Shown: piece by piece, positions 13,006 to 33,431 of the stretch
Position numbering within the stretch: position 1 is the first letter of the stretch
How the letters are laid out: every line of letters begins with the position of its first letter
Origin: a virus
Taxonomy: Duplodnaviria > Caudoviricetes
Length of the DNA: 35,760 nucleotides
Virus record (IMG/VR): IMGVR_UViG_3300020045_009020
Location: 1 to 35,760 of that record
Strand: one strand, 5' to 3'
Program-made: the position numbers and the translations under genes
The notes under the pieces: model-generated
Seen by the model: only the letters and a program-made list of their open reading frames with translations
The model's database searches: none
What the model was told of the DNA's origin: nothing

Positions 13006-13110
13006 AAAATGAATCCGCAAAATTCAAACTACTATTCTAATATTCTTAATAACGAGCAGGATTTTAAAACATTTCTTTGCGGATTCGTTTTGCCTGCTCG
13101 TTCTATTTTT
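13006..13110 (+). promoter_or_regulatory. Structured leader 1 (hairpin plus terminator-like hairpin with complementary loops)
   Basis: TGAAT-CCGCAAA-ATTCA (13010-13026). AACGAGCAGG...CCTGCTCGTT (13051-13102) plus T tract encloses TTTGCGG (13076-13082). Confidence 0.65.
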
Positions 13111-13124
13111 ATTGGAGATAAAAT

Positions 13125-13430
13125 ATGAAGGAAATGTGGCGAGATATAAAAGGATATGAAGGGTTTTATCAGGTTAGTAATTTAGGCAGGATTAAGGGAC
13201 TTAGTAGATTAGTACAACATTCAGTTGGATTTTTAAAAAAACTGAAAGGACGAATTCGGAAACTTAATTTATTTGGAATGGAGAATGACCCTGTTATATG
13301 TTGGGCTAACATTTTTTTAGTTTTGTTGGTAGTAGGCTTAATATACTTATTCGGATGGGCTTTTTTCAGGGGTGTAGACATACTGCACGATTACGATCAG
13401 AAAGTTTATGAAAAAAATAGTTTGAAATAA
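13125..13430 (+). CDS. NUMOD4-domain protein lacking HNH, fused to a TM segment
   Basis: EMWRDIKGYEGFYQVSNLGRIK is the NUMOD4 motif; the C-terminal half is a hydrophobic helix. Confidence 0.75.
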   Translation: MKEMWRDIKGYEGFYQVSNLGRIKGLSRLVQHSVGFLKKLKGRIRKLNLFGMENDPVICWANIFLVLLVVGLIYLFGWAFFRGVDILHDYDQKVYEKNSLK

Positions 13431-17505: not shown

Positions 17506-17621
17506 GGACGGGTGGCGTAGTGGTTAACGCATGTGCGCTCTTAAAAGGTGGGACGCCGATTCCGGAACGGTGGAGCGATAAAACATACCACAAATCGTAG
17601 GTTCGATTCCTGCCCCGTCCA
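17506..17621 (+). ncRNA. tRNA-like RNA with greatly expanded anticodon arm (identity undetermined)
   Basis: Acceptor GGACGGG/CCCGTCC; D arm GCGT-AGTGGTTA-ACGC; T arm GTAGG-TTCGATT-CCTGC; TGTG/CACA encloses 53 nt. Confidence 0.75.
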
Positions 17622-21404: not shown

Positions 21405-21478
21405 GATCGGGTAAGCGATCTATCTTCATTATATAGGGCGTGTTGCTTCTTACCAGGCGACATCGCCCTAGTTTTTTT
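21405..21478 (+). promoter_or_regulatory. Structured leader 2 (kissing-loop hairpin plus terminator)
   Basis: GATCG-GGTAAG-CGATC (21405-21420). TAGGGCG-TGTTGCTT-CTTACC-AGGCGACA-T-CGCCCTA followed by GTTTTTTT (21434-21478). Confidence 0.75.
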
Positions 21479-21491
21479 ATGAGGAGATAGT

Positions 21492-22112
21492 ATGACAACT
21501 AAAAAATATTATAGAGAAAATATTGATAAAATAAAAAAGTATAGCCATCTGTATTATCAGAAATATAAGAAATTGATTTATGCCAAAAATAAAGAATATA
21601 TGATAGCTTATAGAAAACGCAATAATGCTAAATTAATACAATACGCAAAGGAATACAGAATAAATAATGCAGATGCAATTAAAAAGAAAAAGAAAATATA
21701 CAATATTAAAAATAAAAATCATATTAATGAACATAAAAAGCACATTATTTATAATGGCAATAGACTGAAATTACTCAAAAAATACAATTATACCTGCCAA
21801 AAATGCAATCAATCATTTAAAGATTCTAAATTAGATATACACCATATTGATCGATTTGGAAGTAGGAATCCGGTTGCGTTGCAAAATAATAATGTAAATA
21901 ATCTTATGCTCTTGTGTGAACAATGTCATCACAGATTGCATAGTACCGGCGAATCGAATGGCAATGCAAAACTAACAAATAAAAAGGTTACAGAAATAAG
22001 AAAACTCTATAATAAAAAAATATCTTATAGAATTATTACAAAACAATACAATATATCTCAGGCTGTTTTTTACAAAGTTATCAACCATATTAGTTGGAAA
22101 CATGTTATATAA
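21492..22112 (+). CDS. HNH endonuclease (homing-endonuclease-like)
   Basis: CQKC...DIHHID...NNVNNLMLLCEQCHHRLH; C-terminal GESNGNAKLT...EIR HTH-like tail; Lys/Tyr-rich N-terminus; very AT-rich. Confidence 0.9.
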   Translation: MTTKKYYRENIDKIKKYSHLYYQKYKKLIYAKNKEYMIAYRKRNNAKLIQYAKEYRINNADAIKKKKKIYNIKNKNHINEHKKHIIYNGNRLKLLKKYNYTCQKCNQSFKDSKLDIHHIDRFGSRNPVALQNNNVNNLMLLCEQCHHRLHSTGESNGNAKLTNKKVTEIRKLYNKKISYRIITKQYNISQAVFYKVINHISWKHVI

Positions 22113-23841: not shown

Positions 23842-23972
23842 AAAATCTATTCCCAATTACGCTGATCGTTTTAGATCTATGCGCCTCTATTGTTTACTTG
23901 TGTTATGGCGACTGGCGCCGCGCCATTTACTGGCTAGCGGCTAGTATTTTAACCTTGACAGTTACGCTGTAA
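23838..23972 (+). CDS. Two-TM micro-protein (44 aa)
   Basis: Manually translated MKNLFPITLIVLDLCASIVYLCYGDWRRAIYWLAASILTLTVTL; start overlaps the upstream stop (ATGA). Confidence 0.6.
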   Translation: MKNLFPITLIVLDLCASIVYLCYGDWRRAIYWLAASILTLTVTL

Positions 23973-23983
23973 AGCTATACAAT
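23955..23983 (+). promoter_or_regulatory. sigma70-like promoter
   Basis: TTGACA-17-TACAAT. Confidence 0.8.
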
Positions 23984-24024
23984 ATCGCAACTCCAGTACA
24001 AGGCTATTTTATGGATAACAATAC

Positions 24025-24100
24025 AAAGCTTATTGCGCAAGTTTTTTTAATTTATAGAGGATGCTGTCCGTGGCGCAATCACGGCGGCATCCTTAATTTT
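24025..24100 (+). promoter_or_regulatory. Structured leader 3 (kissing-loop hairpin pair)
   Basis: AAAGCTT-ATTGCGC-AAGTTTT (24025-24045). AGGATGCTG-T-CCGTG-GCGCAAT-CACGG-CGGCATCCT (24058-24093) followed by TAATTTT. Confidence 0.75.
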
Positions 24101-24114
24101 ATCATAAAGGAACA

Positions 24115-25572
24115 ATGCCTATGAATGCTTTAAGTCTTGAAATGAAGATCAGGGAATTGGACTCGCAAGAAAATCTCGATATTACTAATGAGATAGGACT
24201 GGCCGAGCTAATCGTACAACTGTATGCAAATGAAATTTTATTTGTACCGGTGCTCGGATGGCTAGTTTGGAATGGTAAACAATGGGAAATTGATAATGAT
24301 AATGTAGTTGTGCTGAAAGTAATTGAAATGTGTCAACAATTAAAAAAAATCATTATCAGTAAAAATGAAAAGAAAATGCTGAAATTCATACCGGATATAT
24401 CACAGAATAGAAAAATCAATTCTATATTAAAGCTAGCCGGAGTTATGCCGCCGATTGTATCCAAACAAAACACACTCGATAGCACGCAAACAGATTATCT
24501 ATTTAACTGTCAAAATGGTACTTTTAATCTCAACACAATGAAACTCCAGCCACACAATCCGACAGACTATATTACCAAAATTTCTAATGTTACCTACAAT
24601 GAAACCGCGAAGCCTGATAAGTTTATTAAATTCCTTAATACTACCTTTTGCAATAATCAAGATACTATTAGTTATATCCAGCGATACTTTGGATATACGC
24701 TCACAGCTTGCATTAATGAGCAAAGTTTAGCTTTGTTTTGCGGAACCGGAGCGAATGGGAAAACACAACTACTTGAGATTATATCGCTCATAATGAAAGA
24801 TTACTATCAAAAAATTGAGAGCAATACATTCCTCGACGATAGAGGCAACAATAAATCACTTGCGCTTGCTAATGCTAAAGGCGCTCGAATGATTTACGCT
24901 GGCGAGTTTAACGGCAAGAAAATTGACGAAGCGTTTGTCAAAACTATTACCGGGGGCGAAGAAGTGTCAGCTCGGCATCATTTTAAAAACTTTTTCCAAT
25001 ATTATCCGACCTATAAAATCTTTATGACTTCAAATGATAAACCCCGAGTATCAGGTAACGATCATGGCTTTTGGCGCCGATTTAAAAGTATTGAGTTTAA
25101 AAATGTTATTCCAACGAGTGATCAGATTAAGGATTTTGGACGGTTCCTGTTCAACGAAGAAGGCTCGGCAATATTTAACTGGGTACTATCTGGATATATG
25201 GCATGGATTTCACAAGGGCTCGGGTCATGTAAGGAAGTTGATGACGCTACACAGGATTATAAAGAGGAAAGCGATATATTACATGATTTCTTTCAAGATA
25301 AAATTGAGGTTGATAAGTTCTATTGTGTTAAGTCCAGCGCGCTGCATAAAGCTATAAATGACTACCGCAAGGCGGCCGGACTCAATGCTATTTCTACGCA
25401 ACGCATGGCTCATTATTTAATCAATAAAGGGTTCGATAAAAAGCAGAAAACACAAGGGGCAGAAAAGGGCTCAAAATACTGGCATGGATTAGGCTTAAAA
25501 GACGCAATAGAACACGCTGACCAGAACGATTTATTAAGTGATATTTTGAATCATGACACAGAACCATTTTAG
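24115..25572 (+). CDS. P4/D5-family SF3 helicase (D5_N plus ATPase), no primase domain
   Basis: GWLVWNGKQW, LFNCQNG, GTGANGKT (Walker A), VKTITGGE, GFWRR. Start may be ATG 24121. Confidence 0.9.
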   Translation: MPMNALSLEMKIRELDSQENLDITNEIGLAELIVQLYANEILFVPVLGWLVWNGKQWEIDNDNVVVLKVIEMCQQLKKIIISKNEKKMLKFIPDISQNRKINSILKLAGVMPPIVSKQNTLDSTQTDYLFNCQNGTFNLNTMKLQPHNPTDYITKISNVTYNETAKPDKFIKFLNTTFCNNQDTISYIQRYFGYTLTACINEQSLALFCGTGANGKTQLLEIISLIMKDYYQKIESNTFLDDRGNNKSLALANAKGARMIYAGEFNGKKIDEAFVKTITGGEEVSARHHFKNFFQYYPTYKIFMTSNDKPRVSGNDHGFWRRFKSIEFKNVIPTSDQIKDFGRFLFNEEGSAIFNWVLSGYMAWISQGLGSCKEVDDATQDYKEESDILHDFFQDKIEVDKFYCVKSSALHKAINDYRKAAGLNAISTQRMAHYLINKGFDKKQKTQGAEKGSKYWHGLGLKDAIEHADQNDLLSDILNHDTEPF

Positions 25573-25588
25573 GACTATAATATAGAGT

Positions 25589-25827
25589 AAAAGTAGCGGA
25601 GTAAGTTATCCACAAAGTTATCCACAAGTGAAAATATTGGAAAATGTCAAAAAAAGTAGCAGATGAGGTTAAAAGTAGCAGAGTAGTAGCAGATAAAACA
25701 CATTGATTTATCAACAAAGTAGCAGAGTAGAGGAGTTTTTATATACTAATAGGTTAAATAAAAATATATATATTTTATATATATGTAAAGGAAGACAAAA
25801 CCTATCTGCTACCAAAAGTCTGCTACT
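25589..25827. other. Probable replication origin: iterons, two DnaA boxes and an AT-rich element
   Basis: Five direct AGTAGC[A/G]GA copies, two inverted TCTGCTAC (25805, 25819), TTATCCACA at 25606 and 25618, AT palindrome at 25761-25776. Confidence 0.8.
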
Positions 25828-27137: not shown

Positions 27138-27147
27138 CCGTATATAA

Positions 27148-27295
27148 TGCAAAATAAATCTTTGCAATTTACAATAAAACTCTCAAGCGGCAGGTTACCG
27201 CGTGGGAGTTTTTTTCATTATAGCGGGGCTAAACCGAATCGGATAACTAAATATCATACAAGCGATTTATGCGTTTATGCCCTGCGCTTTTTTTT
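27148..27295 (+). promoter_or_regulatory. Structured leader 4 (hairpin plus two terminator-like hairpins)
   Basis: TGCAAA-ATAAATC-TTTGCA; AAAACTCTCA-AGCGG-CAGGTTA-CCGCG-TGGGAGTTTT-TTT; GCGGGGC-TAAAC...GTTTA-T-GCCCTGC followed by a T8 tract. Confidence 0.65.
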
Positions 27296-27487
27296 ATGAC
27301 AATACTACAATACGCAGCTTTTCTTTCAGTAACTTTAATATTCCTCGTGCTTGCTTTACGCGCGTGTTACTTTCTTTTTGTTTGCAAAGCCGATCCGATA
27401 AAATCTATTCTTCCGGACTTTGCGCTTAAAATGTTTAAGATAGATACTGATAAAAAATTTCATAAAACTATCGAAGTTTCGAGCTAA
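27296..27487 (+). CDS. Small membrane protein
   Basis: MTILQYAAFLSVTLIFLVLAL...; ATG 27296 preferred as start. Confidence 0.5.
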   Translation: MTILQYAAFLSVTLIFLVLALRACYFLFVCKADPIKSILPDFALKMFKIDTDKKFHKTIEVSS

Positions 27488-29690: not shown

Positions 29691-30133
29691 TGCTTGAGCA
29701 GTTATGGAATACAATCAGGCCGAACAAAAGATTGACTCAGTATGGCACAGTAGCATTACATATATTTGACGATAGAACACTATTAGAAAAGTTGTGCGGT
29801 AAAGTAGATAACTGGATATTTGAGTATCGGCAAAGACAGAGGTTGCAAAAGTCAATCCGCAAACAAGTTTGGCATAGTTTCTACTCGTTGGGCTTAGGTG
29901 GAATAGTAGATTCGCCGGAGAAGATACGCAACTGGGAAAAGAAAGGTTATGCCTGGGCAACTGCAAGAGAATTTGAGCAGACAGCGGACAGAGCGCAGAA
30001 GCGTATTGAGGCTGAGCAGAACACAAAGATAAGAAAGAAAGTAGAATACGCGGCCCGGCAGATTGCACAGGGTAGAAGCTATATCAAAGAGCAGCGTGAA
30101 ATGCGTGAGAAATTATTAAGGCGAGGAAAATGA
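29690..30133 (+). CDS. Hypothetical protein
   Basis: Coupled overlaps on both sides. Confidence 0.65.
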   Translation: MLEQLWNTIRPNKRLTQYGTVALHIFDDRTLLEKLCGKVDNWIFEYRQRQRLQKSIRKQVWHSFYSLGLGGIVDSPEKIRNWEKKGYAWATAREFEQTADRAQKRIEAEQNTKIRKKVEYAARQIAQGRSYIKEQREMREKLLRRGK

Positions 30134-32256
30134 ACGATCCTAAAAAAGTATTATTTGAGAAAATATTAAAACTTTGGGAAGAAGGCGAGAACCAGAGCTC
30201 AATAATTAATGATTTATACGAGTATTATGCCGGAACTAATTACAAGAATCCAGCCGATTCGTTTTTTCTTAAAGAGAATAGAACTCCGCTAAATGTTATA
30301 GGCCAGATTATAGACGCTAAACATTCGGCGGTACTTGACGCTCAGTTTAACGCTTCAGTTGTGCCGGATATATATAACTTTTCAGATATGCAAGCAATTA
30401 AAGCTTTGCAGAATGTTGCTAATGTTTTAAATAAAGGGTTACAGCAAGTATTAAAGAAAAATTGTGAAGATGACATTAAAGAACGAGCGTTAAAGTGGGG
30501 CTTTATTAAGCGTGGCGCTACTCAGGTTATTTGGGATACGACAAACAATACCGACGGCGATATAAAAATAAGTGTTGTTGATCCGCGCAACTTACGATAT
30601 ACGAAAGGCGCTCAGTCAGTGGACGAGCTTACGATGGTTGCGTATTCAGTTGATATAGACGCCGCTATTGTAAAGCGCGATTACGCGCGTATGCCAGACG
30701 GTAGCTTTGATATTGAGCTATGCAAGCGTATAGATGAGGCAGTAGGCAATAAAGATTTATCAAAAGATAAGGGTAATGATAAAGCAATTGCACCTTACCA
30801 AACTGATAATTCGGCTGGGCTTGCCTATGTCAAAGATAGTCAAGCACAATCCGCTGGTAAGATATTGACAATAGTAGTTATGTTCTTATTTGACGGAACT
30901 TTAGAAGCGCCAGTTGAAGGGCAAACTCCCGAAGATGTTGAGCTTCAAAACGAGATGAAGCTTAAATATCCGAATGGGCGTTTGATTATGTTTGTGCCGA
31001 ATAAAGAGAAACAATTAATACTAAAAGACGAAGCCGCGCCGGAATCGTTTAAGAGTTTAGGGAATATAGATTTCTTACTGCTTAATAAATTTAGCGGGTT
31101 AGATGTGAAGAGTGAAGTTGATAATCTTATTGGCGGGCAAGATAGGATTAATGGCACGATAAGAAAGTTAAGAGCGACAGTTGGCGGAAATATTAACTCA
31201 GTATTATTCGACGAAAGACATAGAGGGATTGTTGAGGACAACGCATTTGTAAATTTACCAGTTGTGTTTATTGACGGGCTTGGTGACTTTCAGCCGCCAG
31301 TGCTAAATAATGGCGGTATTGAACAAGCAATGAAGTTGCGCGAGTTAATCGAAAGCTATAAAAATGATATGTACGAAATAGCGCGCATAAACAGAGCATG
31401 GGTAAGCGGCGAGAATCAAGATAATGTCAAATCTGGCGATCATGCAGACGCGCTTAACGAATCGGCAATGTCGGCTATCCGGTCATTACAGCGCAACTTT
31501 AAGGATTACTGGATTGGAGTTTGTGAGAAAGTAATATCATTAATGCTTGAGAATTATACTACACAAAGATTGATTGAGATAGGTAGTGGAGTAACCGCGC
31601 AAGAATATGCTATGTTTGATACTGAGATAGGCGAAGATGGCCAGCCGCAGAAAACAATAAAATTTATAGATGAAGCCGGCAAGATAGCAGATATGATTAA
31701 GATTGACCCGGCATGGAAATTCAAGATTGAAGTTACAAGCGGGACAGATATACCGCGCTCAAGGTTAGAAAATTCAAGGCTTGTAGATGAAGTTATAGCA
31801 TCGCCGATTATGCAGACTGGTGATATTGACATGATAGATATGTATCTAACAGCAAAAGATTTTCCGAATCGCCATGCAGTAGTTGAAATGCTCAAGAAGA
31901 AAATGGAACAAAAGGCTAAGAATCCGGAGCCGATACTTGAGCAATTAGGCAAGAATCCTGATATGATGAAAGCATGGTCAGATTTATTCAAGGCTTTGGA
32001 AGGACACCCAAACGCGCAAGGTCAATTGTTAGAGCGTGCGGGCTTAAATCCCGAAACAGGAACTATTACAAGTTTACCTGCTAATTTAGTAACTAGCAGA
32101 TCACAAGCGAAAGATATTGCATTAATAGCACCAGCTCAAGTAAGCGAGAATCCGAAACAAGCTAAATTCGGTCACGATCAAGCAACAGATGTAGAAATAA
32201 TAACTCATGCTGAAAAACAAAATCAGCATAAGTTTGTGCCTGAGGAGGCCAAATGA
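30130..32256 (+). CDS. Portal protein (P22 gp1-like size and position)
   Basis: 708 aa after TerL; YYAG, LNVIGQIID, VVDPRNL, YPNGR. Confidence 0.8.
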   Translation: MNDPKKVLFEKILKLWEEGENQSSIINDLYEYYAGTNYKNPADSFFLKENRTPLNVIGQIIDAKHSAVLDAQFNASVVPDIYNFSDMQAIKALQNVANVLNKGLQQVLKKNCEDDIKERALKWGFIKRGATQVIWDTTNNTDGDIKISVVDPRNLRYTKGAQSVDELTMVAYSVDIDAAIVKRDYARMPDGSFDIELCKRIDEAVGNKDLSKDKGNDKAIAPYQTDNSAGLAYVKDSQAQSAGKILTIVVMFLFDGTLEAPVEGQTPEDVELQNEMKLKYPNGRLIMFVPNKEKQLILKDEAAPESFKSLGNIDFLLLNKFSGLDVKSEVDNLIGGQDRINGTIRKLRATVGGNINSVLFDERHRGIVEDNAFVNLPVVFIDGLGDFQPPVLNNGGIEQAMKLRELIESYKNDMYEIARINRAWVSGENQDNVKSGDHADALNESAMSAIRSLQRNFKDYWIGVCEKVISLMLENYTTQRLIEIGSGVTAQEYAMFDTEIGEDGQPQKTIKFIDEAGKIADMIKIDPAWKFKIEVTSGTDIPRSRLENSRLVDEVIASPIMQTGDIDMIDMYLTAKDFPNRHAVVEMLKKKMEQKAKNPEPILEQLGKNPDMMKAWSDLFKALEGHPNAQGQLLERAGLNPETGTITSLPANLVTSRSQAKDIALIAPAQVSENPKQAKFGHDQATDVEIITHAEKQNQHKFVPEEAK

Positions 32257-32683: not shown

Positions 32684-32753
32684 AGAGCCACTAGAGCCAA
32701 TATTTGCGAGGGAGCGAAAGCGTCATTACCTCGAAATATTGGCTTATTTTTTT
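32684..32753 (+). terminator. Terminator overlapped by a tandem AGAGCC repeat
   Basis: AGAGCC at 32684 and 32693; AGCCAATATTT...AAATATTGGCT (32695-32744) plus T tract; internal GC-GAAA-GC tetraloop. Confidence 0.75.
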
Positions 32754-32762
32754 GGGGAAATT

Positions 32763-33431
32763 ATGAATCCATTAAAAGCAGCTTATCAGGAAATATTAAA
32801 TAAATCGAAGTTGAAAGGCTTGCAAGAGTTTGCGAGTAATCCTGATACACATAAGAACGCTGATGAATTAGTTGGTGATTTAACTATAGGACAGCCATTT
32901 TCGCAAGTACCGGGGCAAGTTGCAACAAGATTTAATGAAGCAAAAGCAATCGTAAAGAATCCCGCCGGAGAATTTAATAAATATAATGAAGCTGAGATGC
33001 GCAAACCGTTAAAGCAACGGATAGAAGAAAACTTAGGAATGGCAGCAGGGATACTTGGCGAAGATTCAAGATTTGGAGAAGCGCTAAGAATTGATAAGCA
33101 AAACTCAAGAATAAAAATATTAAAAAAAGCACAAGAAATGAGTAAACATTTGAACTCAGCAAAAGTATTGCCTAAGACAGCAAATGAGATTGCGCTAAAA
33201 AAGATGATAGAAGAGAGCGGCGGTGTATATGGTGGCGTGATGCACTCGCCGGATTCAAGTATTGTAAATTTTACGGCAAAACGTGGCGAAACTAGCTTTC
33301 CTATGGCTTTGGAAACTAATAATCTAACACCGGAAATAATCAAAGCAAAAATATTAGAAAAATCTAAATTAGATGCCGCTGAGTTAGTAAGAAAAGCTAA
33401 TTTAAGAAATAAAAAAGGGAGTGTGAAATAA
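32763..33431 (+). CDS. Hypothetical head-region protein
   Basis: Start moved to ATG 32763 after a GGGGA RBS. Confidence 0.65.
   Translation: MNPLKAAYQEILNKSKLKGLQEFASNPDTHKNADELVGDLTIGQPFSQVPGQVATRFNEAKAIVKNPAGEFNKYNEAEMRKPLKQRIEENLGMAAGILGEDSRFGEALRIDKQNSRIKILKKAQEMSKHLNSAKVLPKTANEIALKKMIEESGGVYGGVMHSPDSSIVNFTAKRGETSFPMALETNNLTPEIIKAKILEKSKLDAAELVRKANLRNKKGSVK

Follow-up and report, generated by a model that had tools for sequence, protein, structure and literature searches.

The RNA leader in front of the helicase gene of a tailed phage is a real kissing-loop element that is not catalogued in Rfam and is not shown to be a plasmid copy-control device. It belongs to a family of RNA leaders with two hairpins close to a promoter and is not a feature of the helicase. 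The window analysed here, that is, the whole stretch of 35,760 nt, is the entire IMG/VR record IMGVR_UViG_3300020045_009020 (G000), all annotated genes of which lie on the + strand.

Organization of the helicase leader

The original prediction described the loops ATTGCGC (24032–24038) and GCGCAAT (24073–24079) as exact reverse complements, and a 37-aa upstream ORF (uORF) with an AAGG ribosome-binding site that crosses both hairpins and ends in an ATGA overlap with the helicase ATG. The sequence agrees with both descriptions. Judging from the usual promoter spacing, the transcript of this leader (leader 3) would start at about 23990. Its parts, with the gene that follows, are listed below.

23955–23983, + strand: sigma70-type promoter-like site, TTGACA-17-TACAAT, 11/12 in the promoter scan
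24000–24003, + strand: AAGG, Shine-Dalgarno (SD)-like site of the uORF, from the sequence
24011–24124, + strand: uORF of 37 codons, beginning MDNNTKLIAQVFLIYRGCC and spanning both hairpins; its TGA overlaps the helicase ATG at 24121 (ATGA)
24025–24045, + strand: hairpin 1, 7 bp, weak, with loop 1, ATTGCGC, at 24032–24038, from folding
24037–24049, + strand: anti-SD segment formed by the end of loop 1, the 3' arm and the linker; predicted partner 24105–24118
24057–24094, + strand: hairpin 2, 15–16 bp with two G.U pairs, terminator-like, with loop 2, GCGCAAT, at 24073–24079, from folding
24095–24102, + strand: U-rich tail, 5/8 T, the weakest among six copies
24107–24111, + strand: AAGGA, the helicase SD, from the sequence
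24096–24125, − strand: antisense promoter-like site with an extended −10 (24096–24104), 9/12 in the promoter scan
24121–25572, + strand: helicase gene, D5/P4-family superfamily 3 (Pfam D5_N and DUF5906, PHROGs), primase domain absent

Significance of the loop complementarity

In order to assess the complementarity, loop 2 was kept fixed and the 67 nt upstream of it were shuffled 20,000 times. A 7-bp complement arose anywhere upstream in 103 of the 20,000 shuffles and inside a hairpin loop in none of them (7/20,000 for complements of at least 6 bp). The corresponding counts for a sister leader upstream of an HNH gene (leader 2) were 101 and 1. When hairpin pairs were required to have at least six loop-loop Watson-Crick pairs (strict scan), only leaders 2 and 3 were retrieved from the 70 strong + strand hairpin calls of the window; seven matches were obtained from 78 calls on the minus strand, every one inside a pentapeptide-repeat gene. 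The loop pairing of leader 3 is thus real and beyond chance.

A family of two-hairpin leaders

Further copies of the arrangement were found in the window, in a related provirus (G001) and in an unrelated phage locus. Their common anatomy consists of a sigma70-like promoter followed by hairpin 1, a GC-rich hairpin 2, a U-rich tail, an SD and the start codon.

13009–13128, + strand: sister leader 1, loops CCGCAAA (13015–13021) and TTTGCGG (13076–13082), extendable to 11 bp, before a NUMOD4 remnant
21405–21494, + strand: sister leader 2, loops GGTAAG (21410–21415) and CTTACC (21449–21454), hairpin 2 with a U7 tail (7/8 T), before the HNH gene
G001: copy with loops ATTGAGG and CCTCAAT, before an SNF2-methylase gene
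G001: copy with loops GTCTAG and CTAGAC, before a gene without a Pfam family
L388 (the unrelated phage locus): copy with loops GTTGCGG and CCGCAAC and the full anatomy, before a replication-initiator-like gene, relatives of which are annotated as replication proteins

Both G001 copies lie directly behind TTGACT-16/17-TATACT promoters. The loops of the six copies are fully Watson-Crick complementary and of six different sequences, with each loop 1 finding its best partner in its own loop 2, and within any one genome the loop codes are orthogonal to one another. Loop 1 and loop 2 of the four simple copies are separated by 34–41 nt, and the end of hairpin 2 lies 21–26 nt from the start codon. All six hairpins 2 contain G.U pairs, their + strand folds being better by 2.9–6.1 kcal/mol, and all six are followed by 5–7 T in 8 nt; at least five T at positions −24 to −17 were found in 3 of 50 ordinary gene starts. 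Strong SD burial is predicted in leaders 2 and 3 only and is weak in the G001 copies. The antisense promoter-like site is likewise confined to leader 3; none was present in the three other copies tested, and with a chance rate of 0.084 per 100 nt its occurrence is likely due to chance. The original prediction placed TATAG at or just after the start of the large stems of leaders 2–4, which is correct (21432, 24053 and 27219); as a general feature it fails, being missing in the other four copies. TATAG and a YRxCC peptide echo, both confined to this genome, were dropped as family features.

The strict scan of 82 loci (1.23 Mb) yielded 31 matches, two of them in G001. In a relaxed promoter-anchored scan, the thresholds of which were chosen after leader 1 had been seen, matches were obtained for 3 of 38 promoter sites in the window (leaders 1, 2 and 3), 2 of 17 in G001, 6 of 1,375 in shuffled sequences and 9 of 640 across a further 384 loci. 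The last nine comprise L388 (counted twice), L239 and six more. The motif does not accompany D5 helicases: it was present at none of 146 strong promoter-like sites from 80 D5 loci and five GenBank loci (8/914 with a looser promoter cut-off), and loose GC-rich matches were present in 3 of 70 D5 upstream regions. Among 80 SNF2/methylase loci, the motif precedes that gene in none but G001. Degenerate DNA patterns of the leader gave four matches, all in open frames and none a two-hairpin leader; a further pattern search of 119 loci from 36 of 64 parts recovered no new simple copy; and a BLASTN comparison of the leader with phage and plasmid sequences and with G001 gave either short matches ascribed to chance or nothing. 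The copies as aligned by MAFFT are not structure-true, and no ligand-like sequence conservation among them was seen in the alignments. Searches against Rfam at E-values up to 1 gave no match for the leaders of the window, G001, L388, L470 or L239.

Several neighbouring structures were recorded alongside the family. The gene at 13125–13430 behind leader 1 encodes a NUMOD4 domain (residues 3–49) followed by an unrelated hydrophobic tail and is probably a decayed HNH gene. Leader 4 (27144–27299) has the promoter of a late operon, two terminator-like hairpins, both followed by long U tails, and a uORF of 50 codons that runs by ATGA onto a small SD-less membrane gene, the start of which is conserved in G001. 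L470 (MW202462.1, 895–1030) is an ornate leader before an unannotated replication-initiator-like gene (z −4.6), in which a 5' hairpin carries UUGGCG, a terminator-like stem with U8 encloses a junction with CGCCAA, and CUCAGUA and UACUGAG form a second pair. L239 (1363–1530) is a promoter-led leader with two complementary pairs, CCTCAA/TTGAGG and CGGTAA/TTACCG, and looks c4-like by eye.

The upstream reading frames

The uORF protein of leader 3 matched no Pfam or PHROG family and nothing in the Atlas; two weak repeat-like matches were obtained, each with five matched stretches. Leader 1 carries a uORF of 39 codons, also with an ATGA overlap. ATG-started ORFs with an exact ATGA overlap arose in 232, 286 and 161 of 20,000 shuffles of leaders 1, 3 and 4, respectively, and ATGA-type overlaps are frequent among the gene starts of the phage (17/50). 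Only in leader 3 does the uORF have an SD of its own. In leader 2 a 34-codon frame starts upstream of the inferred transcript start; in the SNF2 leader of G001, an ATG that coincides with the inferred transcript start opens 27 codons ending 12 nt before the gene; the other G001 copy has an internal GTG frame only; and L388 has an upstream ATG in the same frame as its gene.

Predicted folding of leader 3

The + strand of leader 3 folds better than 200 of 200 shuffles (z −3.4) and the minus strand more weakly (z −1.9); the antisense strand itself folds no better than its shuffles (z 0.29) and has no listed terminator. Hairpin 1 is worth only −1.7 to −2.3 kcal/mol, and its central pair had a probability of 0.03–0.11 by nested folding at all ten transcript lengths. 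Hairpin 2 is far more stable (−25.2 kcal/mol) and has a 5-nt loop; opening of the top G.U pair, at 0.4 kcal/mol, exposes 7 nt. Hairpin 2 was not listed by a simple terminator scan. The anti-SD segment pairs with 24105–24118 with probabilities of 0.84–0.96, which is mutually exclusive with hairpin 1 (−30.6 versus −27.5 kcal/mol), and in the nested ensemble of the full leader the helicase SD, AAGGA, is predicted to be paired with a probability of 0.98–0.99. The helicase start ranks 11th among 55 starts for SD occlusion.

The kissed state is not representable in the nested model. For a transcript ending at 24079 the pairing of loop 1 with loop 2 has a predicted probability of 0.79, falling to 0.07 at 24084 as hairpin 2 displaces it. 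Reaching an SD-open, kiss-competent state would cost 6.3 kcal/mol in leader 3, 6.4 in leader 2 and 1.5 and 2.7 in the G001 copies, and the loop duplexes of these four copies are worth −5.7 to −8.7 kcal/mol. With a cost of 6.3 kcal/mol set against a loop duplex of −8.7, the two states of leader 3 may be close in energy.

The phage genome and its relatives

By Pfam and PHROGs, G000 encodes a terminase, a P22-like portal, a tail collar protein, an endolysin, an SNF2 protein, Pam3 gp33- and gp34-like proteins and a CHC2 zinc-finger protein. CheckV puts the completeness of the record at 45%. The ends of the window can be joined across a gap of ~2.6 kb in the alignment to G001, the terminase of which matches at 78% and which has the end of the capsid gene and four more genes, one of them HNH, at this place; the record may therefore be nearly whole. 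In terminase and portal scans, G001 was the sole clade member with DNA, and its replication module differs. The portal (30130–32256) has 17 further relatives at about 52–72%, all proteins without DNA, and found no match among 50,697 GenBank phage records; it marks an uncultured clade.

For the helicase, the best relatives among 7,994 scored candidates reached 36% over most of the length and 42% over a 61% piece, and the CHC2 protein found no relative but itself among 209 candidates. No matching loci for the helicase and the gp34-like protein were detected in viral contigs, nor did the relative searches provide an ortholog of leader 3 at a helicase locus for a conservation check. That no integrase is visible, as originally noted, holds for PF00589 and PF00239 on this record of 45% completeness. 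Integrases or resolvases of these two families, ParA and an HTH_3 repressor were found in neither G000 nor G001, with positive controls matching in 12–14 of 14 genomes, a pattern that agrees with a virulent phage no less than with a plasmid-like state.

Directly 3' of the helicase gene lies an origin-like stretch (25589–25827) in which two exact copies of the DnaA box TTATCCACA are spaced by 12 nt, along with iteron-like repeats of the AGTAGCAGA type in both orientations and an AT-rich tract; a promoter-like site is located nearby at 25553–25581. Elsewhere in the window, a tRNA-like gene (17506–17621) scores 49.2 bits with the Rfam tRNA model and was missed by ARAGORN; in it, 53 unaligned nt replace a 9-position stretch of the anticodon arm. 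A strong hairpin with a GAAA loop and a U-rich tail (32692–32750, z −3.6) lies just 5' of the gene at 32763.

Comparison with known regulatory RNAs

The rep leaders of IncI-alpha ColIb-P9, IncB and IncL/M plasmids combine a leader peptide, a pseudoknot and an Inc antisense RNA (PMC4705826, PMC10724649). As in the IncI/IncB leaders, the ORF of leader 3 stops at the start of a replication gene. By prediction, its SD may also be masked by a stem and opened by a long-range loop pairing. However, the loop partner in leader 3 is not a set of SD-adjacent bases but loop 2 of a separate hairpin of −25 kcal/mol, about 27–28 nt before the SD. Unlike the weak GUG start and plasmid Rep initiator of the IncI/IncB systems, the gene behind leader 3 has an AUG start and encodes a D5_N/DUF5906 helicase; moreover, leader 3 has no supported antisense gene, and its sister copies precede unrelated genes. 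Of the resemblance to plasmid replication control suggested by the original prediction, the leader ORF with its ATGA overlap remains; the antisense site is found at leader 3 only and the topology differs. RNA-level control of the helicase is still plausible, given the real loop pairing and the coupled uORF, but the plasmid framing lacks support as an account of what the element is for; the same design precedes HNH, NUMOD4-remnant, SNF2/methylase, unknown-function and replication-initiator-like genes.

In the guanidine-IV riboswitch, a kissing loop of the 5' leader has been proposed to act against a terminator (PMC11611296). Leader 3 has an upstream loop complementary to the loop of a terminator-like hairpin. 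In contrast to the riboswitch, the present leaders have no Rfam match and precede phage genes, not mepA, and their loop letters vary freely, so that no shared ligand pocket is evident. The Gifsy-1 prophage IsrK-orf45-anrP region is described as combining terminator read-through, alternative folds and an AUGA-coupled leader ORF (PMC4825925). The same source outlines P4, where pairing between parts of a single RNA gates the replication genes (CI RNA with seqA and seqC). Leader 3 shares with the IsrK-orf45-anrP system a short ORF with an AUGA overlap, a terminator-like stem and alternative predicted folds. It differs from IsrK and P4 CI in consisting of only two simple hairpins and one predicted 6–7-nt pairing, and from c4 and P4 CI in lacking a target both up- and downstream of its antisense loop and any Rfam c4-type match.

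Of three RNA surveys compared (PMC2864571, PMC5737381, PMC10690425), the last includes, in a supplementary table, unnamed RNA candidates located in front of Prim-Pol/D5 and SNF2 genes, and the leader family may overlap one such candidate. No description of this leader was found in the titles and abstract openings of the literature searched.

Leaders of T4 homing endonuclease genes, the dose of which must stay low, hide the ribosome-binding site in a hairpin, and a late promoter inside the hairpin bypasses it. Leader 2 resembles these in standing before an HNH gene; to our knowledge, the T4 leaders have no loop-loop pairing.

A model for leader function

We propose that the leader is an attenuator-like gate in which loop pairing would delay the terminator and free the SD, with translational coupling as a specific addition in leader 3; our confidence in this reading is about even. 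Once transcribed, loop 2 is predicted to pair with loop 1 before the 3' arm of hairpin 2 is made. Such an early kiss would delay hairpin 2, allowing the polymerase to pass the U-tail and leaving the SD free (ON). Should hairpin 2 zip first, the outcome would be either termination or a refolded transcript with its SD locked in a long stem (OFF). As a feature of leader 3 alone, ribosomes translating the uORF would melt the stem and restart at the ATGA, so that the helicase would be made mainly from translated leaders. The net outcome would be a low, tunable dose of helicase, and such a gate likely keeps the gene behind the leader turned low. Precedents are the guanidine-IV riboswitch for a kissing loop set against a terminator and IsrK-orf45-anrP for read-through together with an AUGA-coupled leader ORF. 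The weak points of this reading are, at leader 3, the marginal hairpin 1, the weakest U-tail, the failure of the simple terminator scan to list hairpin 2, the displacement of the loop pairing within 5 nt in the nested model and the rank of only 11th of 55 for SD occlusion, and, in the G001 copies, the weak SD burial; no switching signal for the gate was found.

A purely translational switch would dispense with termination at hairpin 2: the kiss would free the SD, the extended stem would hide it, and translation of the uORF would couple the helicase. The anti-SD helix (probability about 0.95), exclusive with hairpin 1 in leader 3 and likewise in leader 2, speaks for such a switch, as do the weak U-tail of leader 3 and the ATGA-coupled uORFs of leaders 1, 3 and 4. 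We nevertheless regard it as rather unlikely in view of the weak SD burial in both G001 copies and the U-rich tail that follows hairpin 2 in six of six copies. The same tails in all copies, together with the competing anti-SD helices of leaders 2 and 3, point to alternative states; a constitutively kissed fold that protects the 5' end or marks a site of processing is accordingly very unlikely, even though neither ligand-like conservation among the copies nor a switching signal was found. Chance complementarity, or a pair of DNA operators around the palindrome TTGCGCAA, is exceedingly improbable. While TTGCGCAA does lie within loop 1, GGCGCAAT recurs in the spacer of promoter 4 and hairpin 1 is weak, none of the 20,000 shuffles reproduced the pairing within a hairpin loop, the loop pairs of the other copies are non-palindromic, and the G.U pairs and strand asymmetry argue against it.

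Two further readings invoke a second RNA. In IncI/IncB-type copy control, a counter-transcribed RNA would compete with the pseudoknot and the leader peptide would induce Rep translation, in a plasmid-like state. The uORF with its ATGA overlap, the predicted SD masking, the iteron-like repeats and DnaA boxes 3' of the helicase gene and the minus-strand extended −10 at 24096–24104, the RNA from which would display the loop AUUGCGC, agree with this. It is set back by the absence of that antisense-promoter-like site, expected by chance at the rate given above, from the three other copies tested, by the poor fold and unlisted terminator of the antisense strand, and by the different topology, the lack of ParA and the copies before non-replication genes; we hold it to be highly improbable. 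Feedback by a same-strand antisense RNA is doubtful, if less so. Here a terminated leader RNA of ~105 nt would pair through its loop 2 in trans with a newly made loop 1 and block the cis kiss, with the loops serving as operon-specific address codes and, for the helicase, as a copy sensor. Orthogonal loop codes within each genome would suit such feedback, and rough geometry (26–29 stacked bp bridged by 8–13 nt) suggests that a taut cis kiss would free loop 2 once hairpin 2 is complete. Precedents are P4 CI RNA with seqA/seqC and the short IsrK acting in trans (PMC4825925). Yet free loop letters are equally expected of a cis-only fold, and ATTGCGC occurs in the window at 24032 and 33189 only, leaving no exact second loop 1 target 3' of hairpin 2 in leader 3.

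Implications

The gate and the trans feedback could be joined in one module, in which the kiss with the terminator loop gives read-through, the released short leader RNA silences new transcripts in trans, and the loops form an orthogonal address code. Although we consider this combination unlikely, it would, if true, provide every operon, that of the helicase in front of the origin among them, with RNA feedback of its own, without a repressor, protein or antisense promoter. If the attenuator-like gate exists, phages in which no repressor is recognisable could use an RNA of ~100 nt to fix the dose of their replication and nuclease genes, and a free sequence combined with a fixed loop pairing would explain the absence of these leaders from sequence-based RNA catalogues. 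The six natural loop pairs are ready for swaps and allow a test of ligand-free antitermination by a kissing loop alone; they are also potential orthogonal parts for synthetic attenuators.
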